From a virus (Duplodnaviria > Heunggongvirae > Uroviricota > Caudoviricetes), in the IMG/VR virus record IMGVR_UViG_3300012007_000007, positions 99,434 to 163,433 of that record: a stretch of DNA of 64,000 nt. One strand, given 5' to 3'. How positions within the stretch are numbered: position 1 is the first letter of the stretch; each line of letters begins with the position of its first letter. The notes beneath the pieces were generated by a model. The model did no database searches. It saw only the letters and a list, made by a program, of their open reading frames with translations, and was not told the DNA's origin. A program made the translations under genes and the position numbers. This document shows positions 36,653 through 60,455 of this stretch, piece after piece.

Positions 36653-36664
36653 CAAATATAGCAA
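36653..36664 (-). promoter_or_regulatory. class-III motif (minus strand TTGCTATATTTG)
   Basis: ~45 nt upstream of ATG 36602. Confidence 0.45.
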
Positions 36665-36718
36665 TTTATGGGGGCTGCTGGTTAAATGCTGTTTTAGCCA
36701 ATTTTGGACGTTTATATC

Positions 36719-36747
36719 AACCAGCAACACTTTGGGTGGACATAGCC
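36719..36747 (-). repeat. 28-bp repeat copy B (inverted)
   Basis: reverse complement reads GGCTATGTCCACCCAAAGTGTTGCTGGTT. Confidence 0.6.
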
Positions 36748-36753
36748 TTTTCT

Positions 36754-37008
36754 TTAGTCGAGCATACCAAGCTCAACTATTTCCGGAACAGTCAGTTCGT
36801 GGTAGGAGAGCATACCTGCAGCGGAAAGTTCCTGTTCCTCGAAGATGCATTCCGAATCCCTGTACCTGTCGCAGCAGTCCGGGCCCCACGTTATTTCCAG
36901 TATAAGCCTTTTGCGGCCATCGGGTACCTGCCTTACCTTGACGGCCTTACCCAAGTTAAGCATCGTTTTGTCGTTCTTGTTTTTCTTCTTAGTTAGTCGC
37001 AGATTCAT
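36754..37008 (-). CDS. hypothetical protein (84 aa)
   Basis: ORF track. Confidence 0.45.
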   Translation of the reverse strand: MNLRLTKKKNKNDKTMLNLGKAVKVRQVPDGRKRLILEITWGPDCCDRYRDSECIFEEQELSAAGMLSYHELTVPEIVELGMLD

Positions 37009-37025
37009 GTCCGCTACCCCCTTCG

Positions 37026-37556
37026 CTATCCTGCGAGCGCCTTGTACGCTTTCATGAGCTTTTCGACTTTCTTATCGTCGACACGCTTCTCCGGTTTCGT
37101 TTCGGCGCGGTACCTCTTCACGCGAGCGTATACGCACTGCTTCGACACCCCTATCCTGGCGGCAATCTCGTCGTAGGTCAGACCCTCGGCGTGCATCTGG
37201 AACAGCAGCGCATCGCGTGCCATGACCTTTTCATGCCTGAAAGTTCCCTTCTCCATCGGAACGCACCGGATATTCCCGGAATCATCCCGCATAACCCGGA
37301 TACCCATCATGTATCCACGGTGGAAACAGGCCGCGAAAGAGCGTCCTTCCGGGAGCTTCCCGCTGCGCAGGGTGTCCATTTCCTTCTTCGTCCATTTCTT
37401 CCTCCCGGTCGGCGGGTCCGGTGGCTCGATGCCGAGTGCATGCGCCTTCAGGTAGCACTGCCCGTACGTACGCTTTGCGGGTATCTTGCCGCGGCCGAGA
37501 AGTTCAAGTTCCTTGTCCGTCCAGCGACGGTACTTGCGTTTAGTGAATGTTGACAT
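37026..37556 (-). CDS. HTH DNA-binding protein with two SANT/Myb-like repeats (176 aa); putative transcription regulator
   Basis: duplicated W-x-(K/D)-E..L/R units; C-terminal LTYDEIAARIGVSKQCVYARVKRY (sigma region-4-like HTH). Confidence 0.5.
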   Translation of the reverse strand: MSTFTKRKYRRWTDKELELLGRGKIPAKRTYGQCYLKAHALGIEPPDPPTGRKKWTKKEMDTLRSGKLPEGRSFAACFHRGYMMGIRVMRDDSGNIRCVPMEKGTFRHEKVMARDALLFQMHAEGLTYDEIAARIGVSKQCVYARVKRYRAETKPEKRVDDKKVEKLMKAYKALAG

Positions 37557-37575
37557 AGTTAATTGTCTCCTGTTT

Positions 37576-37812
37576 TTAACATTGCCTGTTGCACTGTATC
37601 TCGTTTGAGTGTTCCGGGTAGTCGTAACCGAAACGGTCCTTCAAGTACTTAACCATCTGTTCGCGGAAACCGAGGTACTTCCCGGCATCAAGACGAGAGA
37701 TGACCTGTTCCTTTGTCGCGGGGGTGTAGTAATCATCACCATGTCCCGCGATGCACCCGCCACCGCAGCCACATACGCAGCAGTCGCCGCTGCAGTCGCT
37801 ACACATCTTCAT
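37576..37812 (-). CDS. Cys-rich small protein (78 aa)
   Basis: MKMCSDCSGDCCVCGCGGGC N-terminus; internal start of ORF 37576..37983. Confidence 0.4.
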   Translation of the reverse strand: MKMCSDCSGDCCVCGCGGGCIAGHGDDYYTPATKEQVISRLDAGKYLGFREQMVKYLKDRFGYDYPEHSNEIQCNRQC

Positions 37813-38467
37813 TCTCGGCCTCCTCGGAAATTGCCATAACCTCATCCAGGTCGCCAAATTCCATCTCGGTATCGAGCCTCTGGAGCTGGTCGATTGTGGC
37901 CACGTCGAATCGGACTTCGACAACGGTAGGCACGCCGTCGTGGTCGATACGCTCGATGAGACGGGTAATCTTGCCACGGTCACTCGGCTTGAAGGAGTTC
38001 ACCGGGATATACACGGGAGCGTCCGGCTGCTTGCCGGCTTCCCAGTCGATGCCGCTCATCTGCATGTAGTGAATGAATTTCTCGCGGACATCCCTGCGCA
38101 TTTTCTTGATTTCATCGGGGTCGTCGTTGCGGGTCTGTGGCCATACCTTGCGGTCCTTGCAGCGTGATGCGAAGTGGGCCTCGTGGTCGTCACTGCACAG
38201 GAAGTAGGCGAGGTCGAACTTTTTTCCAATGTAATGGTAATACGGCTCGGGGTCCGGCTTTCCGGTGCCGTCCTTGTATGAAAACATGATACTTTTGATG
38301 TTGGTTTCGCTGCCGTCACAGTCGCGAAGGGGCATATCGGACTTGTTGTCGCTGAACACCACGGAAACGTCGAAGTCCGTCTCGGGATACTTCTTCAGGA
38401 TGACGTCGATGTCGCTCTTGTCAATCCACTTGGCTCCGAACACCGAGAAGATGTTTCTGTAAGACAT
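37799..38467 (-). CDS. hypothetical acidic protein (222 aa)
   Basis: ORF track. Confidence 0.55.
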   Translation of the reverse strand: MSYRNIFSVFGAKWIDKSDIDVILKKYPETDFDVSVVFSDNKSDMPLRDCDGSETNIKSIMFSYKDGTGKPDPEPYYHYIGKKFDLAYFLCSDDHEAHFASRCKDRKVWPQTRNDDPDEIKKMRRDVREKFIHYMQMSGIDWEAGKQPDAPVYIPVNSFKPSDRGKITRLIERIDHDGVPTVVEVRFDVATIDQLQRLDTEMEFGDLDEVMAISEEAENEDV

Positions 38468-38604
38468 GGTAAGTTCTCCTTTAATTGTATTGTTCTTGTC
38501 TCTTATACCCTAAATATACATTAATTTCGGCAAAAAGTCAATACTTTTATTGTAAAATTTAGTTTACTTACCATTTCCGCATCATATTTATGGGATTCAT
38601 AATT

Positions 38605-38619
38605 AAATATAGCAAAAAA
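38605..38619 (-). promoter_or_regulatory. class-III motif
   Basis: TTTTTTGCTATATTT immediately after the terminator hairpin. Confidence 0.45.
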
Positions 38620-38643
38620 CTCCTGTTGCGGTCAACAGGAGTT
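38611..38643 (-). terminator. intrinsic terminator (minus strand)
   Basis: AACTCCTGTTGACCGCAACAGGAGTT + TTTTTT. Confidence 0.6.
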
Positions 38644-38665
38644 ACGAACATTTAATTGCGAAACG

Positions 38666-39082: not shown

Positions 39083-39135
39083 AATGCCTCCTTGGCTCGG
39101 TTCAAAAAATACCACCACCTACCGGCGGTGGCCTA

Positions 39136-39876: not shown

Positions 39877-39908
39877 CGTGTCCTCCGATTCAATAGTTTA
39901 TGGCATAT

Positions 39909-40173: not shown

Positions 40174-40314
40174 TCAGGTTTTCCTGGGAAGGTCCGCCAG
40201 GTCCGCCCGGAGCTTGTACATGATTTTGCGTTCCCGGGCAACCAGGGCCGACACTATGCCAACCCCGAACAGGGCGAGCAGCTTCCACAGTATCTTGCGT
40301 TTCTTTCCGCTCAT
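40174..40314 (-). CDS. small membrane protein (46 aa)
   Basis: MSGKKRKILWKLLALFGVGIVSAL; ATGA overlap with the upstream gene. Confidence 0.3.
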   Translation of the reverse strand: MSGKKRKILWKLLALFGVGIVSALVARERKIMYKLRADLADLPRKT

Positions 40315-40544
40315 CGGGTGGTAGCCCTCATGGCGCAGTCGCAGGCGCAGTCGCTGACTTCCTGTTTGCAGGCGTCCTGTTCGACGTGTCGAAAGCCGTG
40401 GTTCAGGTCGATGGACTGCTCGGAGCCGCAGTCCTTCTTCTGGTCGGGCTCCTTGGCCGTGATAAGTGTACGAATCTTGCGGAAAGCGAATACGCTCCCG
40501 GCTACTGCCAGTGCCGCGATGGCTACTTTTGTCTTTGTTGTCAT
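40311..40544 (-). CDS. small membrane/Cys protein (77 aa)
   Basis: AGAGAGG RBS; TM helix then DCGS...CACDC. Confidence 0.45.
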   Translation of the reverse strand: MTTKTKVAIAALAVAGSVFAFRKIRTLITAKEPDQKKDCGSEQSIDLNHGFRHVEQDACKQEVSDCACDCAMRATTR

Positions 40545-40574: not shown

Positions 40575-40590
40575 CAAATATAGCAAAAAA
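40575..40590 (-). promoter_or_regulatory. class-III motif
   Basis: TTTTTTGCTATATTTG ~30 nt upstream of ATG 40544. Confidence 0.45.
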
Positions 40591-43333: not shown

Positions 43334-43708
43334 CTATACAACCTTGATTCTTGTCACGAGGCCGCTGAAAGTGGCCCCGTCGTTCCTAGTATGGGTAAGC
43401 TCGACGGTTCCAGGGCTCAGCTGCACCTGCCGCGCCGATTGCTTGCCCTTCACCGTCTGGTCCCCGGTCTCGGCGAAGAATTGCTCCATGCTCCAGTTGA
43501 GGTCGTGCACCGCGTCCTTCTTGGAATGGTAGAAAGTTCGAGTGGTACTGGCAAGGGTCGACATGTCGTCGCTCCTGTATGTCGTCACGGTGAGCATGTA
43601 TATGTCGTTGTTCTTGCGCACGGCGGACAGGGAGGACTCAAGCTCGCGCACCTTCTTGCGGAGCTCATCCACTTCCTTGGTTTTCTTGTTAGTTACTGTT
43701 CTTGTCAT
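43334..43708 (-). CDS. hypothetical protein (124 aa)
   Basis: ORF track. Confidence 0.5.
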   Translation of the reverse strand: MTRTVTNKKTKEVDELRKKVRELESSLSAVRKNNDIYMLTVTTYRSDDMSTLASTTRTFYHSKKDAVHDLNWSMEQFFAETGDQTVKGKQSARQVQLSPGTVELTHTRNDGATFSGLVTRIKVV

Positions 43709-44670
43709 TATGCGGCAATCCTGGAGAATGCGAGGTCGAACGCGGGAGTGCTGGTCTTCTCGTAGCCACGGTCGACCATGTCCACGATATTGTTGAGGGC
43801 CATGCGGCTGCGACCGGCGATGTTGCCACAGAGAACGGAGCGTGGCTTGTTGGCAGTGTTCCGCGTGTCGTGCTGGTAGGTTCCCTGGATTGCGTTGTAC
43901 AGGTTCCAGGCAGTCATCTTCTCGGAATTGCCGTGGTCGGCGGACTCGAAGCGGTTGACCATTCCGGTGAGCAGGTTGACAAAGTGAGTACTCGGCTCCT
44001 GCGGGTCGTCATCGGAAGCCTTGTATGTCAGGCAACGGGCAATACCCTCGCGGACGAAGTCCATGTCGATTACATTGTCGGCAAGCCGGCTATAGATTTC
44101 GGAAGTCTTCTTGAACACGCCGTCGCAGATTCGCATCGTCTCGCCGAGGATGCGGAGGCGGCTTTCGGCCATGGAATCGTGGCGCACACGGAAAAGGCTG
44201 GCCTGGTCAGCATGGCTGAGCGCGGGTGCAATCTGGTTCTCGCACCAGAAACGGTACGGGGTGATGAGGATGGCGCAACCGCGTGTCCCGTCGTGGGAAT
44301 TGACCACCGAGATGTACCTACCCACGTGGTCGTCGCCACCGCCTACGACCATGTCGTCACCGATTGCAATCTGGGCGAACACGCCGGCACCGTTTCCCCA
44401 GCTGCCCACGTTGCGGAACTCGATATCGGCAACGTTGGCAATGTCGGCAATCACCTTGAAAGCGTCGCGGTTCTGTATTGGCCGGTAAGCCCTTGTGAAC
44501 GTATGCTCGGAAATGATTGTCCCGTCGTCGCTACGGACGGGGGCGAACATCTTGGTGCCGTGGAATTCCCCGTCGGCTCCCATGAAGGACACGGGTCTCA
44601 TCTCGGTGTCGAAGTCGAGGCGGTTGGCGCGGAGCGCGTCCATTACGGATTCATAGGCTGTATTGGGCAT
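43708..44670 (-). CDS. conserved phage/plasmid-type protein of unknown function (320 aa)
   Basis: long, well-formed ORF; AAAGGAACAATCACC upstream; no motif recognised with confidence. Confidence 0.55.
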   Translation of the reverse strand: MPNTAYESVMDALRANRLDFDTEMRPVSFMGADGEFHGTKMFAPVRSDDGTIISEHTFTRAYRPIQNRDAFKVIADIANVADIEFRNVGSWGNGAGVFAQIAIGDDMVVGGGDDHVGRYISVVNSHDGTRGCAILITPYRFWCENQIAPALSHADQASLFRVRHDSMAESRLRILGETMRICDGVFKKTSEIYSRLADNVIDMDFVREGIARCLTYKASDDDPQEPSTHFVNLLTGMVNRFESADHGNSEKMTAWNLYNAIQGTYQHDTRNTANKPRSVLCGNIAGRSRMALNNIVDMVDRGYEKTSTPAFDLAFSRIAA

Positions 44671-44717: not shown

Positions 44718-44733
44718 CAAATATAGCAAAAAA
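44718..44733 (-). promoter_or_regulatory. class-III motif
   Basis: TTTTTTGCTATATTTGG right after terminator 44726..44754. Confidence 0.45.
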
Positions 44734-44754
44734 CCGCGCCGGTGACGCGGTTTC
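44726..44754 (-). terminator. intrinsic terminator (minus strand)
   Basis: AAACCGCGTCACCGGCGCGGTTT + TTTT. Confidence 0.55.
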
Positions 44755-44776
44755 CTGGAAAATGCACAATTTTGGA

Positions 44777-46302: not shown

Positions 46303-47562
46303 TTAATCTGTCCTCACGGTATTGTCGAACAGTTCCTTTATCTTCGGTACGGCCAGGCACATGAGTTTTTCCCATTTCGGCCCGTCGTCCTTCCCGAATC
46401 CCTTCTTCGCCTGTTCCTTCCTGCGCTCCGCCTCGGCATTGGCCGGGCGCACCTTCGTGTAGTACAGGCTGCTCACAACCTCTTCCGGACACAGGTACAG
46501 GAACTTGTAGATGTTCAGCCCGTATGCCTTCGCCTTGTCCGACGGCCCGCTGTGGAACTCGTTCCACATGACATCCTCGTTCCTCGCCGTCAGGTCCATC
46601 AGTTCCTCGCCCAGGGCGGTCAGGCCGGGTATGTCCACCTTCGCCATGCGTTTCAGCTCGGCGACCATCTTCCCCTTGGTGGACCAGTCGGCATCGGAGC
46701 CGAACAACAACTTGTCGGCAGTAATACCGCTCAGGTTGTTCTTGAAGTTATAGTAGAAACGCACGAACCTCCCGGCGACCCCGACTCCCACCCGTCCGGC
46801 GACCAGCGCGTACAGGAAGTTCTCGGCATCGTCGTACAGCCTCATGTCGAACCGGGACTTGCCGGTCCCGCGGAAGTTCTCCCCGCGGGTGATGTGTTTC
46901 CCGAGAATATGGAACTGCCTGCGGCATGGCAGGACGTGGTGGTAGTACTGTCCCTTGGCCTCGTTAACGTTCGACTCGTTCTTGAAGGTATCGAGGTCAT
47001 CCGGGTGCTGCCTGATGTATTCGCGTATCACCGCGGGAACTCCTTCCTCGGCGGCATACGCAAGCCATTCGTCCACGGTGGGCTCCAGCTGCATCACCTG
47101 GAACCTGGCCCGGTGGGCCGGGTCCATCTCGATTACCTGGTAGAGGTTTCCGAACTCCGGGTTTATCGCAGCCATCACGTAGCTGCCGTCCGGGAGAACC
47201 AGGTCGCCCACGCGGTGGTCGGTCGCGAGTCGCATCAGCCCCTTCATCACGGTCTTGTTCCTGTTCACCTCGTCGAGAAGCAGGACGCACTTCGTATCCG
47301 GCCCGAGATACCAGGATGGCGGCTTGTACACCGTCCTCCCGCTGTCGAAGTCGGGAAGCCCGAACACGTCGACCATGTCCGTGTTCTCGGACACCTGTAT
47401 CACGCAGAACGGCAGCTTCACTATGTCGTCCGCGAAGTGCCTGGATATCGTAGTCTTTCCTATGCCGGTGTCGCCCTCGAGCAGCACCGCCGATTCCGAC
47501 CCGCACACTTCCATCATGTCATAGAACTGTGCGAAACTGATTCCCTTTCTTTCAGTAATCAT
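46303..47562 (-). CDS. MoxR/CobS-like AAA+ ATPase (419 aa)
   Basis: Walker A LLEGDTGIGKTT, Walker B CVLLLDEVNR, sensor AAINP. Confidence 0.7.
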   Translation of the reverse strand: MITERKGISFAQFYDMMEVCGSESAVLLEGDTGIGKTTISRHFADDIVKLPFCVIQVSENTDMVDVFGLPDFDSGRTVYKPPSWYLGPDTKCVLLLDEVNRNKTVMKGLMRLATDHRVGDLVLPDGSYVMAAINPEFGNLYQVIEMDPAHRARFQVMQLEPTVDEWLAYAAEEGVPAVIREYIRQHPDDLDTFKNESNVNEAKGQYYHHVLPCRRQFHILGKHITRGENFRGTGKSRFDMRLYDDAENFLYALVAGRVGVGVAGRFVRFYYNFKNNLSGITADKLLFGSDADWSTKGKMVAELKRMAKVDIPGLTALGEELMDLTARNEDVMWNEFHSGPSDKAKAYGLNIYKFLYLCPEEVVSSLYYTKVRPANAEAERRKEQAKKGFGKDDGPKWEKLMCLAVPKIKELFDNTVRTD

Positions 47563-47570: not shown

Positions 47571-47586
47571 CAAATGTAGCAAAATG
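47571..47586 (-). promoter_or_regulatory. class-III motif variant (TTTTGCTACATTTG)
   Basis: only ~10 nt upstream of ATG 47562. Confidence 0.35.
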
Positions 47587-47622
47587 AAGATGCCCCGGAA
47601 CCGGTCCGGGGCGTTTTCGCCG

Positions 47623-49168: not shown

Positions 49169-49184
49169 TTCGAGTTGCGCAAAT
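49169..49184 (-). promoter_or_regulatory. class-III motif variant (TAAGCTAGATTTGCGC)
   Basis: ~30 nt upstream of ATG 49154. Confidence 0.35.
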
Positions 49185-49189
49185 CTAGC

Positions 49190-50974
49190 TTATTTCCCGA
49201 TAAAAGTGTCAAGGTCCTCCTTGAACACGCACCAGTCGGGGAACGCGTAATCCCCGTGCGACCGAAGTATCATTATCTGCCTCGGCCTCGGAGGCTCCGG
49301 CCAGTTGAATATGCAGTCCGTCAGGTATATCAGACCGTCATACTTGTAGCGCTCCGGACCCAGCTTCCGCAGGACGCAGTCGGGGTCGGTCCGGCCGCCA
49401 CCGTATATCGCCATGTCCCTTATCGACCTCGGGGTGTCGAATACCGGGCTGCACACGGCGTCCCAGTACACTATGTCTACCGAGAGCCCGTTCACGATGT
49501 TCTCCATCACCGTCAGACAGTTGAGTATCGCGTCGCCCTGGTACATCGAGCCGCTCACGTCTATGCAGAACAGTATCCTCTGCGTCTCCTCGTACAGGTT
49601 TCCCGGGGCAATCATCCCGTACCTCAGGTACTTCCTGTTGCGGCGGCTCCAGCTCGGGTTGAACTCCTCGTCCTGCACGCTCGTCATGAACCGGCGGAAC
49701 ATGGCCTCCCGGTCGACCTTCACACGGTTCGCGTTCCTCAGCATCAGTGGCAGGGGGCCGCGCATCCTGTCGAACATTCCCTTGTCCAGCGCATCCAGCA
49801 CCTTCGCCGTGGTGTTGTCGCTCGCCACCGAGTCGTTGTCCCACCTGGCCAGGTCGCCCGCCGCGTTGGACAGCGAGAAGTACTGCGACATTCTCTCCAT
49901 GTCGTCCTTTGGAGAATCTCCCCGTCCTTCGCCGGAAGACCCGTCGTCGACCGGCTCGCCGCCTTCACCCTCCTCGGTACCGCCGTCGGAATCGCCACCT
50001 TCCGTAGAGTCGCTGCCGCCGTCCGAATCACCCTCGCCGGAATCTCCCGGGGAACCGTCGGGAACCGAGCCACCGTCCTGGCCCTCGCCGGATGAACCGT
50101 CCGCGTCTTCACCGGGAGAACCTTCGCCGCCATCGTCGAATGGTTCGCTGCCGGACTCTTCACCGGGTTCTTCCTGGCTTTCACCGCCTTCATCGGGTGA
50201 ACCTTCGCCGTCGCCATCGCCGCCGGACTCCCCTTCGCCGGAATCACCCTCGTCGCCTCCCTTGCCCTTCTCCTCCCGGCTCTTGCCCTCTCCGCCGGGC
50301 TCGTCGCCGGTTTCCTCTGAGTCGTCCCCGTGCTCGCCGGATTCGCCATGGCTTCCGCCCGACTCTTCCTGCTTCTGCTCGGTCTTCTTCCCGGATTTCC
50401 CCGGGCTGTCCGAGGTTTCCTTCCGGGTTTCCCGGGAGGTTTCCCGGGAATTCTCCTCCCGCTCCTCGTCGTCGGACTCCTCGGGTTCCTGGGAGGCGTA
50501 CTCCTCCTTCAGAATCTCGAACAGCTTTTCCAGCGTAAGGTCGGTTTCCGGGTGGAACCCGTGCTTCTTCAGCACCGGCCAGTGGTTCCAGTAGCTCGGG
50601 AATATGCGGTTGACTATCTCCAGGTTGTTTCCTATCGAAGTATCGACTACCTTCCTGGCATACTCGGCGACGACTATGTCGCTGGCCAGCTTCAGCATGG
50701 ACAGCGGTTCCTGCTTGCGCTTGTCGCAGTGGTGCAGCGCAATCTTCAGGCACTGCATGTACACCACCGCCCCGAGCAGGGAAGGTTCCAGGCGGGTGAC
50801 GAAGTCCACGTTGTACTCGAGCACCGGCATTCCGCCGTCAACGCCGGTACGGACGGTAACGGAAGTGTCCTCGGTAGGTATGCAGTTCGCCGACATGTAC
50901 ACCGGGAGAAGCCCCGGTGCCGTCTTCGACATCAGCAGCACTGCCTGTCTCATCGCGGCGTTGGCCGCTTCCAT
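49190..50974 (-). CDS. CobT-like von Willebrand factor A domain protein with long acidic linker (594 aa)
   Basis: C-terminal vWA MIDAS motif FCIDVSGSMY; ~200-aa D/E/G/S-rich linker; start set at MEAANAAM, since the upstream 87 codons are Arg/Gly junk. Confidence 0.6.
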   Translation of the reverse strand: MEAANAAMRQAVLLMSKTAPGLLPVYMSANCIPTEDTSVTVRTGVDGGMPVLEYNVDFVTRLEPSLLGAVVYMQCLKIALHHCDKRKQEPLSMLKLASDIVVAEYARKVVDTSIGNNLEIVNRIFPSYWNHWPVLKKHGFHPETDLTLEKLFEILKEEYASQEPEESDDEEREENSRETSRETRKETSDSPGKSGKKTEQKQEESGGSHGESGEHGDDSEETGDEPGGEGKSREEKGKGGDEGDSGEGESGGDGDGEGSPDEGGESQEEPGEESGSEPFDDGGEGSPGEDADGSSGEGQDGGSVPDGSPGDSGEGDSDGGSDSTEGGDSDGGTEEGEGGEPVDDGSSGEGRGDSPKDDMERMSQYFSLSNAAGDLARWDNDSVASDNTTAKVLDALDKGMFDRMRGPLPLMLRNANRVKVDREAMFRRFMTSVQDEEFNPSWSRRNRKYLRYGMIAPGNLYEETQRILFCIDVSGSMYQGDAILNCLTVMENIVNGLSVDIVYWDAVCSPVFDTPRSIRDMAIYGGGRTDPDCVLRKLGPERYKYDGLIYLTDCIFNWPEPPRPRQIMILRSHGDYAFPDWCVFKEDLDTFIGK

Positions 50975-50988
50975 TCTGCGGGAATCAA

Positions 50989-51306
50989 TCAAAACACTTT
51001 CCTGTATGGCTGAATTGTGTACTGCACCCTGCGTGTTCCGATTCCCGGCCGTCCGCCGGAATAGTATACCTCGCTCTCGATTGCGGCCACCCTTCCCGGA
51101 TACAATTTCTTGTTTCCCCTGACGGCCCTCACGGCGCGCTCGAACATCGGCTCGTAGTCGTAATCCTTGTATCCCGGGTATGTCTTGACCGGCTGGTACC
51201 AGATTGTAACCCCGCGCCTGCGGTGGCATTTCCATCCGAAAGTAATCTGGCGCAGCCTATTGCTTATAGCATTATGGAAAAGTATTCTCTTTATCTTGTT
51301 CAGCAT
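50989..51306 (-). CDS. hypothetical protein (105 aa)
   Basis: AAGGAAAGACTAT RBS; internal ATG (residue 20) of ORF 50989..51363. Confidence 0.45.
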   Translation of the reverse strand: MLNKIKRILFHNAISNRLRQITFGWKCHRRRGVTIWYQPVKTYPGYKDYDYEPMFERAVRAVRGNKKLYPGRVAAIESEVYYSGGRPGIGTRRVQYTIQPYRKVF

Positions 51307-51351
51307 ATAGTCTTTCCTTGCAACAAAAAATGTGGCCTCGGTGGCCACATT

Positions 51352-51364
51352 CAAATATAGCAAA
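51352..51364 (-). promoter_or_regulatory. class-III motif
   Basis: TTTGCTATATTTGAA; here the hairpin TGTGGCCACCGAGGCCACA follows the motif. Confidence 0.4.
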
Positions 51365-51378
51365 TTTGCAAGGTTCCG

Positions 51379-51682: not shown

Positions 51683-52042
51683 CTACCCCTTTATATAGTC
51701 TGCTGGAACAGCACCCGCTTTCTCTGGCGGCCATTCAGTTGTTCTTGTTGCCGTAACCACCGGCGTGTCCACCGACCAGTGGTCTCCTAGCCAGACAGGG
51801 TTCTGCGCCGGTTTCCCGGTACCGCCGTCTCCTGATGGAATCACCCTGGTAAAATCCACCACGCCCCCATTGCTCGCCTGCTTACCGGAAAGCTCATCGA
51901 GAACGGCCAGCTTCGCCTTTGCCTCGATTAGTCCATTGGTGAAAGAGTCAGGACAAGTCCCAATCCTGGTCATCGGCTCGGCAACCGCTATCAAGTCCTC
52001 CAGCGCATCCCTGGCGCACTTGAACATCAAATTGTATTCCAT
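51683..52042 (-). CDS. hypothetical protein (119 aa)
   Basis: ORF track. Confidence 0.5.
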   Translation of the reverse strand: MEYNLMFKCARDALEDLIAVAEPMTRIGTCPDSFTNGLIEAKAKLAVLDELSGKQASNGGVVDFTRVIPSGDGGTGKPAQNPVWLGDHWSVDTPVVTATRTTEWPPEKAGAVPADYIKG

Positions 52043-52073: not shown

Positions 52074-52088
52074 CAAATATAGCAAAAA
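52074..52088 (-). promoter_or_regulatory. class-III motif
   Basis: TTTTTGCTATATTTG ~30 nt upstream of ATG 52042. Confidence 0.45.
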
Positions 52089-52178
52089 CCACCTACCGTG
52101 AATTGCCAGATGCAACCTGTCAGAAGAAGGAGCATGAGCACCATCCCCGCTACCAGTATCGCATACGCTATCTTACTT

Positions 52179-53024
52179 TCAGGCATCCGGCACCTCCACC
52201 AAGTAAGTTCCCGCTTCCCTGTTCAGCATGAACGCGTTCCTTTCCTCGGGATAGCCGAGCGGGTTGCACACTATCCTGACGCGGTTCCCGGTAGGAGCGG
52301 TGTACACCGTGTCGAACTGGTTGTGCGTGTGGCCACACTGCCATACCGTACCGTCGTCCAGCATGTCGAGGAACCTCTGCGCGTCGAAATAGAACATCGC
52401 CGTCACCGGGTCATCCCGGTACACCTCGGCAACCCCCATCTGCAACGGGCAGAAGTGCGTCATGACTATCCGGGGCCTCGCCTTGCATACAACCTCGAGA
52501 TTCTCCAGCTCCCTCGCCAGGATGTCCGGGAACACCTGGTTCCTGTAGTTCCACAGCCTGCCGTCGAACCACCGGTTGCTCCAGAAGTCGAGCGCGTTGA
52601 ACGGCTCTCCGTTGTCTACGCGGTAGCCCAGGTCGCATACGCCCATCGTTCCTCCGAACAGCCCTGACTCATCGACCTGTCCGTCAAGGATATGGACGTT
52701 GGGGCAGCTTTCCGAGATGCTCTCCCGGACATACTCCATCCTCTCCTCGCTGGTGTCGAACAGCCTTCCCGGGAAATCCCGCTTCACCACCAGGTCATGA
52801 TTGCCGAACACCACGTAGACCTCCCGGTACTTCCGGGAGATGAACCGCAGGAACGAAAGCTGTACCCCCTCGTAGTTGGCGACATCGCCGGCTATGCATA
52901 CCGCGTCGGCAGGGGTGAAGTAGTTGCCGTACAGTGCTTCGAACATAGGGTGGAGAACGGCATCGCTGTCGCTCAGTGCCGAATAGAAATCTACATGTAT
53001 ATCCGAAATGAGGAATACTTTCAT
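52179..53024 (-). CDS. calcineurin-like metallophosphoesterase (281 aa)
   Basis: ISDIHVD, GDVANY, GNHD, GHTH motifs; GGAGG RBS 9 nt upstream. Confidence 0.7.
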   Translation of the reverse strand: MKVFLISDIHVDFYSALSDSDAVLHPMFEALYGNYFTPADAVCIAGDVANYEGVQLSFLRFISRKYREVYVVFGNHDLVVKRDFPGRLFDTSEERMEYVRESISESCPNVHILDGQVDESGLFGGTMGVCDLGYRVDNGEPFNALDFWSNRWFDGRLWNYRNQVFPDILARELENLEVVCKARPRIVMTHFCPLQMGVAEVYRDDPVTAMFYFDAQRFLDMLDDGTVWQCGHTHNQFDTVYTAPTGNRVRIVCNPLGYPEERNAFMLNREAGTYLVEVPDA

Positions 53025-53060: not shown

Positions 53061-53076
53061 CAAATATAGCATTTTT
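53061..53076 (-). promoter_or_regulatory. class-III motif
   Basis: AAAAATGCTATATTTG ~40 nt upstream of ATG 53024. Confidence 0.45.
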
Positions 53077-54852: not shown

Positions 54853-54946
54853 TTGTTACTCCGATGTATTGAAGTTGATAGATTTCATTTTTCAGCAGCA
54901 CGTTGGGTTAACATACCCAAACAATATCTATTCCGGATGCGTGTAG

Positions 54947-55029
54947 CGGAAGGCGAGGGACTCGAACCCCCAAGCGTTTTACCGCGGCGGATTTCAAGTC
55001 CGCTGACTTACCAGTTAGCCTAGCCTTCC
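54947..55029 (-). tRNA. tRNA-Ser (anticodon UGA), long variable arm
   Basis: hand-folded cloverleaf; acceptor GGAAGGC/GCCTTCC; anticodon loop CTTGAAA; T-loop GGTTCGAGTCC. Confidence 0.65.
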
Positions 55030-55036
55030 TGTTTCC

Positions 55037-55225
55037 CTAGTAGTGGGCGTGCGAAGAGAGAAGTTCAGCCTTCTCCCTCTCCATGCGCTCCCTCTGCCGG
55101 GCAAGCTTCTTGATGTCTATTCCGCAGGACTTGGCCATGCTCCTGGCCTTCTTCTGCTGCTTGGCCCAGCGGGCCTGCTTCTGCTCCTCGGTTTCCTCCG
55201 GGAGCTCTTCCCTGTGCTTCTTCAT
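55037..55225 (-). CDS. small Lys/Glu-rich protein (62 aa)
   Basis: ORF track. Confidence 0.4.
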   Translation of the reverse strand: MKKHREELPEETEEQKQARWAKQQKKARSMAKSCGIDIKKLARQRERMEREKAELLSSHAHY

Positions 55226-55233
55226 ATGTCCCC

Positions 55234-55701
55234 CTAGTCGTTCACCCCGACGACCACAATCTCGTCTTCGGTAAAATACTCGTTAAGTTTGTCCCTGTTG
55301 GCCTGCATAGTGTTCCACATGCGCTCGACCACGTCAATAGGAACCTTGCGCTCCCTGCCTTCCATTCTCCGCATGGCGACCTCGGGCGGAATGTCGAACC
55401 AGTAGGCCCTGGACATTGAGCCGGCCGGGCAAAGGCCCAGGTAGGTCCTCCAGTCCCTCACGTGGATATTGGTGGCGTCGCACACCACGTCGCCGCGCAG
55501 CATGCCCTCCGATACCCTAGAACGGAATATGGCGAATACCTTGGAATCCAGCTCCGGGTAGAGGTATTCCTCCGTACCGGTCAGTTCCTTCCGGATTCCA
55601 TCGGACGACACTACGGTAGCCCCGGTAGATTCCGCGAGCTTCCTCCCGTACGTAGACTTGCCGCACCCGGGAATGCCTATGAGAAGATGCAGAGTATTCA
55701 T
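55234..55701 (-). CDS. polynucleotide 5'-kinase (T4 Pnk kinase-domain-like P-loop kinase) (155 aa)
   Basis: GIPGCGKST Walker A; RKVPIDVVERMWNTM closely resembles T4 Pnk KAVPIDVLRSMYKSM. Confidence 0.65.
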   Translation of the reverse strand: MNTLHLLIGIPGCGKSTYGRKLAESTGATVVSSDGIRKELTGTEEYLYPELDSKVFAIFRSRVSEGMLRGDVVCDATNIHVRDWRTYLGLCPAGSMSRAYWFDIPPEVAMRRMEGRERKVPIDVVERMWNTMQANRDKLNEYFTEDEIVVVGVND

Positions 55702-55719
55702 CTGATTGTTCCTTTTTAG

Positions 55720-55792
55720 TAGTCCTACCCGGATTCGAACCGGAGTTACCGGAATGAGAATCCGGCGTCCTGGGCCTCTAGACGATAGGACC
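55720..55792 (-). tRNA. tRNA-Glu (anticodon CUC)
   Basis: hand-folded; strong similarity to bacterial tRNA-Glu backbone; loop TTCTCAT. Confidence 0.6.
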
Positions 55793-55807
55793 GTGTGTTA
55801 AATTTAG

Positions 55808-55881
55808 CTCCGGTGGACAGACTCGAACTGCCGAATCTCCTGATTACAAATCAGGCGCTCTACCAACTGAGCTACACCGGA
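55808..55881 (-). tRNA. tRNA-Thr (anticodon UGU)
   Basis: hand-folded; loop TTTGTAA; T-loop TTCGAGT. Confidence 0.6.
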
Positions 55882-55887
55882 ATGGAA

Positions 55888-55961
55888 TCGGGGTAGCCGG
55901 ATTCGAACCGACGACATCCTGCTCCCAAAGCAGACGCTCTACCAGGCTGAGCTACACCCCG
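55888..55961 (-). tRNA. tRNA-Pro (anticodon UGG)
   Basis: hand-folded; loop TTTGGGA. Confidence 0.6.
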
Positions 55962-55967
55962 GGAACC

Positions 55968-56228
55968 CTAGTCTTCTTCGACTGGTTCCGTCAGCTTGGT
56001 AGCGATTACCTTCGCGTAGTCGGCCACCGTGCGGATACGTTCGAGCTCGGAATCGAGAATCTCAATCTCGAACTCGTCTTCCATCGCCATCACGATTTCC
56101 ACGATGTCGAGAGAGTCCGCGCCGAGGTCGGCAGCGATTTCGGAATCGTCGTCGATGTCGGAAACGTCAAGTTCCAGCTTGGCGGAAATTACGTTCTTCA
56201 CGCGTCCGAGAAGTTCATTGCTTGTCAT
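55968..56228 (-). CDS. acyl carrier protein (86 aa)
   Basis: GADSLDIVEIVMAMEDEF phosphopantetheine-attachment motif; AGGAGA RBS. Confidence 0.65.
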   Translation of the reverse strand: MTSNELLGRVKNVISAKLELDVSDIDDDSEIAADLGADSLDIVEIVMAMEDEFEIEILDSELERIRTVADYAKVIATKLTEPVEED

Positions 56229-56244
56229 ATACTCTCCTTGTAAA

Positions 56245-56541
56245 TCACTTGACTTCTTCGACTTTCTGCGGTCCGGCCAGGCGGTGCATGTCCGCATACA
56301 GTCTTTCCCGGTATAGTCCGAGGTCCTTCAATGTCTTTTCCAGTTCGTCGAACCTGCATTCGACGACACGGTCTCCGGATTCGATGCGGGCCTTCTCCTT
56401 ATCCATGTCGTACCGTATCCATGTTACGGCCAGGTCCTTCGGGTTGACGTACTTGGTCGTCGTAACGTCGTACGAGTGCATGTTTTGGAGGTAACCTTCG
56501 ATGAACCGGAATTTCCAAAGAGCAAAGTTTGTCAAGTCCAT
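56245..56541 (-). CDS. hypothetical protein (98 aa)
   Basis: ORF track. Confidence 0.5.
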   Translation of the reverse strand: MDLTNFALWKFRFIEGYLQNMHSYDVTTTKYVNPKDLAVTWIRYDMDKEKARIESGDRVVECRFDELEKTLKDLGLYRERLYADMHRLAGPQKVEEVK

Positions 56542-56562
56542 TGTTCATTATCCCCAAATTGC

Positions 56563-56651
56563 CAGTTTATGTAGAAGAGGGAGCAGGATTCGAACCTGCG
56601 AGGGCCCGTGAGGGCCCCACCGGCTTAGCAAGCCGGCGCCTTTAGCCTCTC
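56563..56651 (-). tRNA. tRNA-Ser (anticodon GCU), long variable arm
   Basis: hand-folded; loop TTGCTAA; 89 nt. Confidence 0.6.
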
Positions 56652-56670
56652 GGCCACCCCTCCGATGAAA

Positions 56671-57450
56671 TTAGTTCAGCGACAGGTCGGGAACTACCCT
56701 TTCCACGGAGCGGCTGTCGTTGAACTCGCTGCCACGATAGCGGTGAGTGTCGTACTTCGGGTCCTGCCCTATGATGCCGTAAGTCATGGAATCGGCCATG
56801 CCGGATGTCTTGCACACGCTGAACAGCGCGTCGCTCATGAACGGGTACCGCTTCAGCTCGTTGAGGAGACCGTCGAGTATGAAGTCGGCGAACCTGGTGT
56901 AAGCGCCGCTGTAGCACAGCAGACCCTTGTTCAGCCCGACCAGGAACAGCTTCATCTCGGAATGGTGGGCGAGGTACTCGTAAACTCCCTCCGTAATCTG
57001 CGGATAGGTCGGGGAATACATGTCGTCGAGCACCACTACACCGTCCGGCTGCAGTACCTTCGACGCGATGTCGAGGTCGCACTTCACCCCTTCCAGGGAA
57101 TGGGCCCCGTCGATGTGGATGAACTGCATGCACTTTCCGTATTCGCGGGTGAACGGGGTGTAGCATGAAAGGTTGAGGTATCCCTTCACGTGCTCCCCGT
57201 CCAGCGTGGTATGCGAAAGCACGTTCTCCCTGGTGGTCTGGTAGTGTCCGGCGTCGCATTCGACGTAGTGGAACGTGTCGGAAGTGCTGCTCGCTATGAT
57301 GACGGCCGTCTTCCCGTCCCACGTCCCTATCTCCATCGTGTTCGCCGGCTCGATGAAGCGTAGAAAACAGTCCATCAGGACCATGGCCTCGTAGTTGTTG
57401 AAGCCCTCTATGTCCGCGACAGTGTACATGTTGAATATATCGTTCTTCAT
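56671..57450 (-). CDS. class I SAM-dependent methyltransferase (TylF/MycF-like fold) (259 aa)
   Basis: EIGTWDGKTAVIIA (motif I-like), IHIDGAHSLEG, DGVVVLDDM. Confidence 0.5.
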   Translation of the reverse strand: MKNDIFNMYTVADIEGFNNYEAMVLMDCFLRFIEPANTMEIGTWDGKTAVIIASSTSDTFHYVECDAGHYQTTRENVLSHTTLDGEHVKGYLNLSCYTPFTREYGKCMQFIHIDGAHSLEGVKCDLDIASKVLQPDGVVVLDDMYSPTYPQITEGVYEYLAHHSEMKLFLVGLNKGLLCYSGAYTRFADFILDGLLNELKRYPFMSDALFSVCKTSGMADSMTYGIIGQDPKYDTHRYRGSEFNDSRSVERVVPDLSLN

Positions 57451-57484
57451 CGGGAATCTCCGGGAGATTGGTTGTTTTTGCTAG

Positions 57485-57557
57485 TATCCCCACCAAGACT
57501 CGAACTTGAATCGGCGGTTTAGGAAACCGTGGCTCTATCCTGTTGAGCTATGGGGAC
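57485..57557 (-). tRNA. tRNA-Arg (anticodon CCU)
   Basis: hand-folded; loop TTCCTAA. Confidence 0.55.
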
Positions 57558-57582
57558 TCATACTCGTACTTACGGAAGTGGA

Positions 57583-57666
57583 GGGACTCGAACCCCCAAG
57601 CCGGTAAAGGCTCGCGGTTTTCGAAACCGCTCCGCCACCACTTGCGGGACACTTCCTGTATAGGGT
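57583..57666 (-). tRNA. tRNA-Ser (anticodon CGA), long variable arm
   Basis: hand-folded; perfect acceptor GGAAGTG/CACTTCC; loop TTCGAAA. Confidence 0.6.
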
Positions 57667-57673
57667 GGAAGAC

Positions 57674-57747
57674 AGGGCTTGAACCTGCAACAGCCGGCTC
57701 CACAAGCCGGGGCTCTACCAGTTGAGCTACTTCCACCGTAAATGGCC
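57674..57747 (-). tRNA. tRNA-His (anticodon GUG) with genomically encoded G-1
   Basis: hand-folded; loop TTGTGGA; extra 5' G pairing with C73. Confidence 0.6.
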
Positions 57748-57864
57748 ATGCGGCCCGGGAGCGCCGGGATATCCCGCGGCGTTTTCCCGGTTGCCCCGGG
57801 AGCATACCGCCGGCATGCTGAGCATCCCGGGTATTGGCCGGGACTCACTTACATCACCGCATAG

Positions 57865-57939
57865 TGCCCCTGGATGGGCTCGAACCACCGACCACTCCCA
57901 CCAATGGCGGGAGATGCTCTACCGCTGAGCTACAAGGAC
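57865..57939 (-). tRNA. tRNA-like gene with non-canonical anticodon arm (8-bp stem / 3-nt loop, or 9-nt loop)
   Basis: acceptor, D-arm and T-arm (GGTGG-TTCGAGC-CCATC) fold; anticodon region CTCCCGCCATTGGTGGGAG does not give a 7-nt loop. Confidence 0.4.
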
Positions 57940-58184
57940 ATGGACCGGGGTACTAGCTAGCTCTCCCCCGGCGATTGAAGCAGCCGGCTGCCATGCAGGC
58001 TGACGGGCCCACATGGCCCGCCTTCACGATTTCCCTCCAATCAATTGGAAACCGGGAACGGTAGGCGGGCGCAGTCCGGTATCCCGGATGGCTGGCCCCT
58101 GGGCTGTTCCATGCCCGCCATGACTTTGTGCCTCATGGTGGCGACCATCGCATTTCCCGCGGTCGACGGGGCATGCGGTAGTAG

Positions 58185-58260
58185 TGGACGGTCTGGGGCT
58201 CGAACCCAGGGCCTAGTGGTTATGAGTCACCTGCTCGCATACCAACCGAGCTCACCGTCC
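58185..58260 (-). tRNA. tRNA-Met (anticodon CAU; elongator, or Ile2 lysidine type)
   Basis: hand-folded; perfect acceptor GGACGGT/ACCGTCC; loop CTCATAA. Confidence 0.55.
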
Positions 58261-58266
58261 GTAAAC

Positions 58267-59025
58267 TTATGCTTCAATTAACACATCATCTGATTCAATA
58301 TATCGATAGAACGTGCAACCTAGCAGCTCTTTGATGATACGTGTTCGTTCGATATCCTTGTCCTGACATACGCCATTAGTGTAATGGTGCCTGTGTTCAT
58401 CGTATTCAACGACTATATTACGTTCTTTATCATAAGCATCCAATGAATAACGGCCAACTCGAATCTCACCACCATTCATTGCATGCTGTAAATTCCAGCC
58501 ACGCTCAGCATTGAGCCTATCGAAATATTCACACGCTTTGATGCTGTATCGCGGACCAGCATTGGTTGCGTTTATATATTGCCGCGTCGATTCGCTAATT
58601 TTCTTCTTGGTTTCATCAGAATGGGTTCTTCCAGTGAATGTTCCCTTCAACTCTCCGCTAGCATATCGGTTTTCTAATGTAGTCACATACTGTTTGACCC
58701 TGGCATCAGTGAATTGTGTCAATCCCTTGTTCCATGCACTTCCAATCAGCTTTCGCTTTCCATCAACTACAACGAATCTAATCGCCTTATCGGGGTGAAC
58801 ACTCTTCTTATGTGCATCGAGAAGCCGTCTGGTTTCCATTACGCAATCACAGAATGGACACTTCCAGTCATTAGACCTGCGCCGACGAGTTGCTGGAGGA
58901 TGTCCTGTCAGTTTACCGTTCTTGTTTGATTGCTTGCCAATATTGCGATATTGGCAAGCTCTCGAGCAGAACCTCCCAGACCCGTACGAACCATCATGCT
59001 CAGCACCACATTCTTCGCATATCAT
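58267..59025 (-). CDS. putative freestanding homing endonuclease (N-terminal zinc fingers + NUMOD3-like motif) (252 aa)
   Basis: CEECG...CSRAC and CPFCDC...H..H fingers; FTGRTHSDETKKKISESTRQY NUMOD3-like; embedded in the tRNA cluster like T4 segB. Confidence 0.45.
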   Translation of the reverse strand: MICEECGAEHDGSYGSGRFCSRACQYRNIGKQSNKNGKLTGHPPATRRRRSNDWKCPFCDCVMETRRLLDAHKKSVHPDKAIRFVVVDGKRKLIGSAWNKGLTQFTDARVKQYVTTLENRYASGELKGTFTGRTHSDETKKKISESTRQYINATNAGPRYSIKACEYFDRLNAERGWNLQHAMNGGEIRVGRYSLDAYDKERNIVVEYDEHRHHYTNGVCQDKDIERTRIIKELLGCTFYRYIESDDVLIEA

Positions 59026-59042
59026 ATCTTTTATCCTTTTAG

Positions 59043-59119
59043 TGCCACGGGGTGGATTCGAACCACCATCTCACCTGGTCGCGAACCAAGGATGCGCTCT
59101 GCCGTTAAACTACCGCGAC
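59043..59119 (-). tRNA. tRNA-like gene with insertion between D- and anticodon stems
   Basis: T-arm GGTGG-TTCGAAT-CCACC and acceptor fold (2 G-U pairs); the standard anticodon stem does not pair. Confidence 0.35.
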
Positions 59120-59120
59120 A

Positions 59121-59774
59121 TGGTGGGAACAGCGGTATCCTAGCTTCTAGAAAGCGTCACCGCCCGGTTCCCTCTCGGTGTCCTTGCAGGGACTGTACTC
59201 ATTCCGCCGATGCGGAAACCATCCGGCTATCTGCCAACCGGCTAGGCCACTGTAACCAGTGTGGCCAACGGGCCCTTAATGCTCCACGTTACCAGGACGT
59301 GGCCGCACTCTGTCTTGTTTTACGTCGTTTCGACGGGCGCACCCGACGGCCGGACTTGCGAGAGCATACCTCGCTCGTCCATATTTGGCTTCCCCGCAAT
59401 TTACACCTAGGCTAATCACGGTTACCCAAAATCATAATCTCGCTGGCGCATTACCGGGCTTCCCCGAACGGTACCCCGGCCATTATTCCGCCACTTATGC
59501 TACGGCACAGCCCCATAGGATATACCTGCGGGCATCTTCCATCATCTCCGTCGAGACTTTTCAAACACACTGGGCCTATTAGCGGGCCCTTACCGCTTTA
59601 CGCTCGCGTGGCCGGTACGCGGCTGCACGCATGCAACCTTTCCCTGAACGGGATTGGCATTATGGCACTTGGCCAAGCTCATCAAATGCATGACCCCAGA
59701 TTCCTGTCGGGCCAAGAAACTTACCGCACGAATATCCAGGAATCTCAGTCGGGCGGCAGCAATCCAATGTCCTA
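59121..59774 (-). ncRNA. candidate structured ncRNA (GC-rich, ORF-free, ~650 nt) with RNase P RNA P3/P4-like motifs
   Basis: minus-strand hairpin GCGAG-guaugcu-CUCGC followed by AAGUCCGGCC; later ACAGAGUGCGGCC, CCUGGUAACG; near the 3' end GGGAACCGGGCGG complementary to GUCCGG; ends ...CCCACCA. Confidence 0.3.
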
Positions 59775-59847
59775 CTCCGGCTGCCGGACTCGAACCAGCG
59801 ACCCCGTCATTACGAATGACGCGCTCTACCAGCTGAGCTAAGCCGGA
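59775..59847 (-). tRNA. tRNA-Thr (anticodon CGU)
   Basis: hand-folded; perfect acceptor TCCGGCT/AGCCGGA; loop TTCGTAA. Confidence 0.6.
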
Positions 59848-60135
59848 AAAATGGTGGAACGCCCCGGTCTCGATTGTTCACAGGAAGTACCAGAGCCTTG
59901 ATAATGCCGAGCGGCCTTGCGTCCACCAAATGGTTTCCCGGCGGGGCGTAATATCTTCAATGTAAAAATAGGAACGCCGTTTGCCGGGAATAAAGGGGGC
60001 ACCTCCCGGGGAGTAATAATTTAACCCGTAAGAAGGAACTCCGTATGGGAGGTGCTAATGTCTTGGCGCGGGCCCAACCGGAGGAGAAAGGGCCCGCGCC
60101 GTCGCCGCGGCATGGAGGGACCGCGGACTTGTTCG

Positions 60136-60208
60136 TAGCGGGAGGCGGATTCGAACCGCCGACCTCGAGGTTATGGGCCTCGCGAGCTACCAACTGCTCC
60201 ATCCCGCG
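60136..60208 (-). tRNA. initiator tRNA-fMet (anticodon CAU)
   Basis: C1 x U72 mismatch, A11:U24, GGAGCAGTTGGTAGCTCG closely matches bacterial tRNA-fMet; loop CCCATAA. Confidence 0.6.
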
Positions 60209-60439
60209 TCGTAAAAAGGTTGGTACGGGACTGGCAAGGAGTTTTCGTCGAATCAACCAAATAAGGAGTATCATGGCAATGAATGAACCATGATGTATGG
60301 CACCTCGCCCGTCCCGTACCGAAAAGGTATTGCCTGGATATCGTATCCAGGAACGCACGGCTTAACCTGAGCCGTGTGAGAAAAAACGCATCCGGACTGT
60401 CAATCTGCTTGGGAAACTCTGGGATTTCCCGGTATGCCA

Positions 60440-60455
60440 TAAATATAGCAAAAAA
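60440..60455 (-). promoter_or_regulatory. class-III motif, likely promoter of the tRNA operon
   Basis: TTTTTTGCTATATTTA ~230 nt upstream of tRNA-fMet on the minus strand. Confidence 0.4.

Follow-up and report, generated by a model that had tools for sequence, protein, structure and literature searches.

In a 64,000-nucleotide stretch of tailed-phage DNA (positions 99,434 to 163,433 of the IMG/VR record IMGVR_UViG_3300012007_000007; hereafter, the window), one short sequence recurs in the gaps between genes. What does this sequence do, and which protein would read it? The sequence is a motif of 12-16 bases (TTTT-TTGCTATATTTG), which is found before genes, the tRNA operon and non-coding RNAs. 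Because it stands before tRNA and non-coding RNA genes and not only before open reading frames (ORFs), it is a transcription signal and not a translation signal. Almost certainly, the motif is a promoter that works without a -35 box. The window has a GC content of 57%, and its genes are encoded on the plus strand up to ~35.9 kb and on the minus strand from 64 kb down to 36 kb.

Distribution and conservation of the motif

When TTTTTTGCTATATTTG was searched for with up to 3 mismatches in the 16-mer, 11 matches were found in the window against 0.17 expected, and a count of 11 was reached in none of 100 shuffles. A weight matrix was built from the copies: 10 window sites scored 25-33 bits, and everything else scored 13.7 bits or less. 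Because of this gap, the motif family is discrete, and the proposal of a preliminary description, that the motif is repeated before genes, is borne out. Hereafter, a site is named after the 5′ end of its 12-mer core (for example, 44729 on the minus strand and 31514 on the plus strand). The preliminary description listed ten copies, all on the minus strand. Nine of these are among the 10 clean sites. In contrast, the copy that had been placed at 49169 scores less than 10 bits and has no counterpart at the orthologous position of the related contig L001. The remaining clean site, 31514, is on the plus strand, and four further plus-strand copies are present in the source-assembly flanks to the left of the window (L223 1809, 1889, 2537 and 4034). 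Thus, both strands carry members of the family. To the right of the window, the flanks contain a variant, TTGCTATATTAC, 43 nt before the complete gene for an 835-aa Cas12-like protein. Two near-matches on the plus strand were rejected as family members: the one at 1823 is the TATATTT -10 box of a TTGACA-N17 promoter, and the one at 8185 has only the T-run and the TATATTT box in common with the motif and has no evident TTGAC. In the literature searched, the motif was not found in a relevant context.

All sites are intergenic and have the same orientation as the next gene, as judged from independent gene calls, namely those of the sheep/gut metagenome source assemblies (SRR948090, PRJNA214227). 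The distances from the end of the motif to the ATG codon are 8, 30, 31, 36, 45, 47, 50 and 60 nt. Longer gaps are observed at site 38615 (136 nt to the gene) and at site 60451 (231 nt to the first tRNA). The spacing of 10-45 nt that had been given earlier is therefore too narrow for the ATG codons and does not cover these two sites.

The exact motif is present at two minus-strand sites. One of them (40575-40590, core 40575-40586) lies between divergent genes, 30 nt before the ATG of gene 40311-40544, and is conserved in L001 (18034). The other (44718-44733, core 44718-44729) is fused to the T-run of a hairpin (44727-44757); the ATG of the next gene, which encodes a DUF932 protein (43708-44670), is 47 nt on, and the site is conserved in L001 (12710 and 13132) and in L230 (20162). 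The copy TAAATTGCTATATTTG (36653-36668, core 36653-36664, minus strand) has a predicted +1 at ~36648 and is followed by gene 36084-36602, of which the ATG is 50 nt on and the ribosome-binding site (RBS) is AAGGAG. The copy TTTTTTGCTATATTTA occurs twice on the minus strand. At 38604-38619 (core 38604-38615), it is fused to the T-run of a terminator hairpin (38618-38643), and the gene that follows (37799-38467) has its own TTGACT-N17-TATATT promoter at 38513-38541. At 60440-60455 (core 60440-60451), it is located between a CRISPR array and the tRNA array, of which the first gene is tRNA-Met (60135-60208). The variant CATTTTGCTACATTTG (47571-47586, core 47571-47582, minus strand) stands 10 nt downstream of a hairpin (47592-47612) and 8 nt before the ATG of the gene for a MoxR-like ATPase (46303-47562). 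The copy GTTTTTGCTATATTTG (52074-52089, core 52074-52085, minus strand) precedes gene 51683-52042, with the ATG 31 nt on, and the variant AAAAATGCTATATTTG (53061-53076, core 53061-53072, minus strand) precedes a metallophosphoesterase gene (52179-53024), with the ATG 36 nt on and the RBS GGAGG.

The copy AAATTTGCTATATTTG occurs once on each strand. On the minus strand (51352-51367, core 51352-51363), a hairpin with T6 (51328-51352) comes directly after the motif, and the ORF 50989-51306 and the gene for a DUF2201 protein (49190-50992) follow. The motif-then-hairpin order is kept in L001 (4513), although the stem sequence is different. On the plus strand (31510-31525, core 31514-31525), the hairpin 31526-31551 comes after the motif, and the next gene encodes an SPFH/Band-7 protein (31586-32533). 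At both sites, the six preceding bases are GCAAAT (51364-51369 and 31508-31513), which gives a 10-bp palindrome, GCAAATTTGC, across the extended -10 region; the palindrome is too rare to tell from chance, and the two sites that carry it are those with a hairpin after the motif. It should be mentioned that a raw 681-aa ORF (49190-51235, minus strand) is probably two genes, an ORF of 105-124 aa and a 600-aa DUF2201 protein that starts at 50992. This division is based on the source gene calls, in which the small ORF is 50989-51363 (otherwise 50989-51306). A gene for a CCA-adding enzyme lies downstream within the same unit. The sequence that had been listed as the copy at 49169 is AAGCTAGATTTG (49180-49191, minus strand); it occupies the 35-nt gap before this gene and is a weak family member at best.

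The motif is unchanged in relatives at 50-70% protein identity, and the flanking DNA and the terminator stems have diverged. L001 is syntenic with the window from 55.9 to 37.8 kb at ~70% nucleotide identity and possesses six exact and three near copies, all of them co-oriented. In three pairs of orthologous intergenic regions from the window and L001, the motif is the sole long identical block. Relatives were also traced through a sigma-70-family protein that is encoded in the window. Exact copies are found in these sigma-linked relatives, on contigs of 430-470 kb, and even where the sigma factors are only 50-59% identical, the exact 12-mer is still present after hairpin T-runs. Upstream of the helicase gene, five distinct phages (68-100% aa identity) have kept a hairpin, a T-run and TT(G/A)CTATATTT ~30 nt before the ATG; the hairpin stems at these loci are unrelated in sequence but their structure is retained. 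Because the hairpin is kept as a structure and the motif as a sequence, the arrangement fits a terminator followed by a promoter. At some orthologous terminators, the motif is present in one phage and missing in the other, which is normal promoter turnover.

The motif-bearing element belongs to an uncultivated family of very large (220-470 kb) gut/rumen phages. Among GenBank phages, no close relative of the window sequence was found. The best match of the helicase, LR756500 (462 kb), was set aside as uninformative, since this phage has 24% GC and does not possess multiple exact copies. Scans of IMG/VR with exact 14-mer and 16-mer patterns gave mostly chance matches in AT-rich phages; among the matches listed, only multi-copy loci at ~55-58% GC proved to be related.

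Two further structures accompany motif copies in relatives. A non-coding block of ~115 nt (L223 1852-1968, ~8 kb left of the window, and L070 10800-10925) is ~90% identical between two phages, whereas their genes are far more diverged. A motif copy lies in the loop of a long inverted repeat in this block (ACCCAAAGTGTTGC / GCAACAnCTTGGGT). The block may be a small RNA or a regulatory structure; it has no Rfam match at gathering thresholds. In addition, the motif copy of the SSB gene has a small inverted repeat, GACAC-N3-5-GTGTC, upstream of it (L315 6760-6790, L317 6885-6912, L318 6855-6883 and L320 7130-7159), which is perfect in L320 (TTGACACTAAGTGTCAA) and may be an operator.

Promoter geometry, terminators and the genes served

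In sigma-70 coordinates, the motif consists of a T-run (-20 to -16), T-15, G-14, C-13, the hexamer TATATT (-12 to -7), T-6 and G-5. This layout is the one of extended -10 promoters. Two sets of sites were used for the analysis: a logo of 39 aligned sites from the window and relatives (one of these contigs, L026, was later shown to be unrelated) and a cleaned set of 51 non-redundant family sites, for which the relatives' sites were collected at one mismatch or less. The hexamer is TATATT in nine of the 10 window sites and TACATT in one; T-12, A-11 and T-7 are present throughout and are kept in the 51 family sites. Likewise, nine window sites read TTG-C-TATATT, and site 53072 reads ATG-C, in which T-15 and G-14 are still there. 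C-13 has no exception in the 10 window sites or in the 51 family sites, the latter under the one-mismatch limit. G is found at -14 in essentially all sites. The final G of the motif is present in 35 of the 51 family sites and is replaced by A, C or T in the others. No -35 element was detected: in the 39-site logo, the information is at most 0.3 bit at each position from -5 to -45 relative to the core. Outside the 12-mer, the only information in this logo is the T-run directly upstream and an A exactly 7 nt past TATATT. In the cleaned set, A occupies the predicted +1 in 29 of the 51 sites.

Start codons are found 4-8 nt past the motif at window site 47582, L223 4034, L070 6702 and L038 1638. 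Therefore, mRNAs that begin at the predicted +1 would be leaderless or near-leaderless; the predicted leader at 47582 is ~4 nt. For the other genes, a Shine-Dalgarno site follows the motif at 15-60 nt. Pairing between the sequence upstream of the motif and the downstream RBS showed no excess over shuffles (mean z +0.27, 28 sites). Therefore, the idea that such pairing limits translation to promoter-started mRNAs, as in the case of T4 lysozyme, was rejected.

About half of the sites abut a terminator hairpin. In the window, the hairpin scan revealed two sites, 38615 and 44729, at which the hairpin T-run forms the 5′ end of the motif. The 14-pair, intrinsic-terminator-like hairpin at 44727-44757 (minus strand) is the model case of such a terminator-promoter unit. 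Three such fusions had been proposed. At 47582, a strong hairpin ends 10 nt upstream of the motif, and it has no clean T-run. In the family, a hairpin is found within a few bases in ~30 of the 51 sites, by a test that is lenient in energy and distance. Thus, the preliminary description of the motif as a promoter that is often part of a compact terminator-promoter unit is supported. At 51363 and 31514, where the hairpin follows the motif, RNAs that begin at the predicted +1 lose roughly half to two-thirds of its folding energy; with two cases only, this loss is suggestive.

Units of this kind are known from T4-like phages. PeSL cassettes are stem-loop terminator and promoter units that are repeated between genes and tied to indels (PMC2839356, PMC4122927). 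They possess full sigma-70 -35/-10 early promoters and are clustered at accessory ORFs (PMC2839356, PMC4122927). In contrast, the units described here have no -35 box and no conserved hairpin sequence, and they also serve core replication genes. The replication genes of the motif-bearing family are T4-like (a gp41-type helicase), as in the phages that carry PeSLs. We also considered whether the motif is not primarily a promoter but a repeated recombination site, at which patches of homology would shuffle gene cassettes, or an operator for a phage regulator such as the helix-turn-helix (HTH) protein 37026-37556. Composite promoter/stem-loop cassettes of the T4 type mediate such indels (PMC2839356, PMC4122927). 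In L001, an extra small ORF is flanked by copies of the motif at 12710 and 13132, whereas a single copy (44729) is found in the window, and an IscB element is inserted just after a motif copy; the extra ORF is the one clear case of an indel boundary, and the sample is small. The variable presence of the motif at orthologous terminators points in the same direction. However, the motif is asymmetric, its orientation always matches that of the downstream gene, its distance from leaderless ATG codons and the A at the predicted +1 fit the geometry of initiation, and it precedes core genes (helicase, SSB and primase), not just accessory ORFs. Nothing in the analysis ties the motif to the HTH protein, to which the preliminary description had pointed. 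We regard a primary role other than promoter as very improbable; any recombination would follow secondarily from the repetition of a promoter, as it does for PeSLs, and would be no true alternative.

In the window, the units behind the motif comprise the tRNA array, the metallophosphoesterase, the small ORF with the DUF2201 protein, the MoxR-type ATPase, the DUF932 protein, the SPFH protein and small ORFs. In relatives, the genes behind the motif encode a DnaB/gp41-like helicase (of the T4 gp41 type), a primase, SSB, a clamp-loader-like ATPase and a ParB-like protein. A HEARO/omega RNA of L001 (8415-8644; Rfam RF02033, 122 bits) begins 19 nt past a variant motif copy and is followed by IscB (8702-9970; RRXRR and HNH domains). 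This omega RNA-IscB element, which the window lacks, has been inserted between the motif copy and the MoxR ATPase gene. The genes behind the motif have early or middle functions, not late ones, and we infer a corresponding temporal role for the motif. No structural gene was seen behind it, though the structural modules of the family were not sampled. One apparent case, a motif 7 nt before the large terminase gene of L026, was discarded as evidence for late genes: this terminase comes from small marine phages that form a widespread group, and the match is due to chance. The preliminary description had compared the motif with the T4 late promoter TATAAATA (gp55/gp33/clamp). Both are a single -10-region element that lacks a -35 box and is strongly conserved in a large phage. 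However, TATATTTG shares only five of eight positions with TATAAATA, and the genes served are not late; the reading as a late promoter is thus not supported. No gp55-like protein was seen in the window.

The sigma factor that would read the motif

Our favoured explanation, to which we give slightly better than an even chance, is that the motif represents an extended -10 promoter, without need of a -35 box, and is read by a sigma-70-family sigma factor. The host core RNA polymerase with this sigma factor would bind the motif by sigma domain 2 and helix 3.0 alone, and transcription would begin ~7 nt past the hexamer. The same unit would be reused before many transcription units (protein genes, the tRNA operon and non-coding RNAs). 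Where it stands right behind the intrinsic terminator of the preceding unit, as it often does, the cassette would end one transcript and start the next. The motif resembles extended -10 (TGn) promoters and those of the Thermus phage P23-45 in that TG is found one base before a TATAAT-like hexamer and no -35 box is recognisable. It differs from them in its 11-12 near-invariant positions, which include C-13, T-6 and the T-run from -16 to -20. To our knowledge, the motif-bearing phage has no gp39 or AsiA-like factor. If -35-dependent initiation is shut off, a separate -35-less class would allow the phage to keep such genes active, as in P23-45, in which a -35-less promoter class for middle and late genes is active when -35-dependent initiation is blocked (PMC3950348). 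As a promoter family, the motif is real and strongly supported; its architecture is known, and its sequence and its carrier phages are new.

The window also contains a second promoter class, which consists of TTGACn, a T-rich spacer of ~17 nt (AATTTTTTAT) and TATATT or TATAAT. Members are located at 1808-1837, 12096-12125, 20754-20785 and 26442-26470 on the plus strand, where they stand before plus-strand genes, the sigma gene included, and at 38513-38541 on the minus strand. TG at -15/-14 is a standard replacement for the -35 box. We consider the host primary sigma factor to be the most likely reader of the motif, at about even odds, because this classic substitute is present and because TATATT(T) also serves the canonical TTGACn-N17 promoters of the same genome. 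After the host sigma factor and the phage sigma factor discussed below, what is left of the probability falls to other readers or to the absence of a promoter role.

Several points weigh against the favoured explanation. Every start site is a prediction from sequence. The hairpins right after the motif at 51363 and 31514 could attenuate transcripts that begin there. Furthermore, C-13, T-10, A-9, T-8 and T-6 are near-invariant at more than 50 sites in diverged phages, which is more than an ordinary host promoter requires. A primary sigma factor normally tolerates variation at these positions, and their near-invariance fits a dedicated factor. However, it is partly circular, because the relatives' sites were collected at one mismatch or less.

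A candidate for such a factor is the phage sigma-70-family protein of 258 aa (26558-27334, plus strand), which consists of sigma2, a short helix 3.0 and sigma4. Its AlphaFold2 model (mean pLDDT 78) contains sigma2 and sigma4. In the raw ORF list, this gene is mis-joined to a 489-aa ORF. It is encoded on a contig of 222 kb, and contigs of up to 472 kb carry homologs that are 44-59% identical to it. It is possible, although we think it rather less likely than reading by the host sigma factor, that this protein reads the motif as a private promoter class: it would be made from an early host-type promoter and would direct the host core enzyme to middle genes. These middle genes would include those for replication, nucleotide and tRNA functions, C-13 would be read by Lys127 in helix 3.0, as C(-13) is by sigmaS K173, and the arrangement would parallel that of SPO1 gp28. 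The sigma gene has a different, -35/-10-like promoter, and the invariance of the 12-mer exceeds what a host promoter would require. The sigma family has at least 25 members (44-100% identity) on contigs of 220-470 kb, next to FtsK and RadC in conserved synteny, and all sigma-linked relatives examined carry the exact motif. Because all of them belong to a single phage family, however, this co-occurrence is not independent evidence.

The sigma profile aligns best to RpoS and SigA. Four residues (P122, E123, N124 and K127) do not vary, and K127 aligns with sigmaS K173. In sigmaS, K173 contacts C(-13), which is the main selectivity element of sigmaS (PMC3367168). The motif resembles sigmaS-type promoters in the invariant C-13 beside the hexamer and in the weak or absent -35 box, and the Lys of the phage sigma factor in the K173 column extends this likeness (PMC3367168). 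A functional link between Lys127 and C-13 would be drawn by analogy from sigmaS (PMC3367168). K127 is invariant in 24 sigma homologs, as is C-13 in the sites; since neither varies, no covariation signal is possible. In contrast to the sigmaS preference for T, the motif has G at -14. The phage sigma factor is only ~20% identical to RpoS, most of its domain 3 is missing, and, in comparison with the E. coli sequence, N103 and H104 take the place of the Trp dyad in the -10 melting region. Therefore, a TATAAT-like box is not its obvious target. Moreover, the protein keeps a well-folded sigma4, although the motif has no -35 box, which is what sigma4 normally reads. We tentatively suggest, as a bolder form of the same idea, that a compact phage sigma factor that defines a megaphage family reads a private -35-less extended -10 element through TG and a Lys-to-C(-13) contact, and that the cassettes double as recombination modules.

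Could the motif instead be a host-type promoter of Bacteroidota, in which a TAnnTTTG '-7' box is read by the unusual primary sigma factor of this phylum and marks a Bacteroidota host? The preliminary description had hinted at this. TATATTTG fits TAnnTTTG at all six specified positions in eight of the 10 window sites (the exceptions, 38615 and 60451, have a final A), it has an equal position relative to the predicted start, and a control phage of Bacteroides fragilis, B40-8, uses TATATTTG and TAnnTTTG boxes. In addition, the sigma profile reached no cellular proteins other than 'primary sigma factors' of ~290 aa, with E-values of only ~1e-4; their N-termini resemble the Bacteroidota type. However, Bacteroidota promoters are of the -33 TTTG/-7 TAnnTTTG type, and those of B40-8 have TTG-N19-TAnnTTTG, whereas the 39-site logo has no TTG or TTTG at -33, and TTTG is found immediately upstream of the box instead. 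The varying final G does not fit, and canonical TTGACn-N17 promoters coexist in the window. Finally, Shine-Dalgarno cores precede 40 of 56 source-called genes (71%), as compared with 5 of 46 (11%) in B40-8 and 18% at internal ATG codons. Thus, the hint is weak, and we consider a Bacteroidota promoter to be unlikely. Searches for the host in GTDB genomes with the CRISPR repeat and with the sigma family gave nothing.

Neighbouring features and significance of the motif

The 13 tRNA genes behind site 60451 (54946-60208) are interleaved with ORFs, among them a NUMOD3 homing-endonuclease-like gene (58267-59025) and a methyltransferase gene (56671-57450). An odd tRNA-Asn with the anticodon ATT is present at 57864-57939. 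A second tRNA array is apparent, as read by eye, past the right end of the window (L312 2300-3400). The CRISPR array on the other side of site 60451 (60600-61571) has 12 near-identical repeats of 36 nt (GGTGTAGTCACCCCTCAAAATGGGGGTGGGTCCACC) with a period of 66 nt, and the copies become degenerate towards 60600. The repeat has no exact match in GTDB genomes. The array is directly downstream of the gene for the 835-aa Cas12-like protein (61576-64000, minus strand; complete in L312 4943-7450), which has a TNB zinc-finger domain of the Cas12f/TnpB type. On the plus strand, a low-GC island at 27-30 kb contains four copies of the 14-mer TTAACCGTGCTTCC (27361, 27644, 28103 and 29586) against 0.39 expected, and this 14-mer may be a further regulatory family.

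The motif is a new example of a known promoter type and does not represent a new kind of mechanism. Its value is that it provides a ready transcription map for uncultivated, very large gut/rumen phages, in which the starts of units and the leaderless genes can be located. The tRNA arrays, the Cas12-like gene and the omega RNA of IscB are placed under the same signal as the replication genes. The motif could also act as a search key for relatives of the family in metagenomes. Furthermore, it raises a sharp question of sigma specificity, namely phage versus host sigma factor and the roles of C-13 and K127. If the phage sigma factor is indeed the reader, a private sigma factor would provide phages of 220-470 kb with a self-contained programme for middle genes, which would include those for replication, tRNAs, CRISPR-Cas12 and omega RNA.

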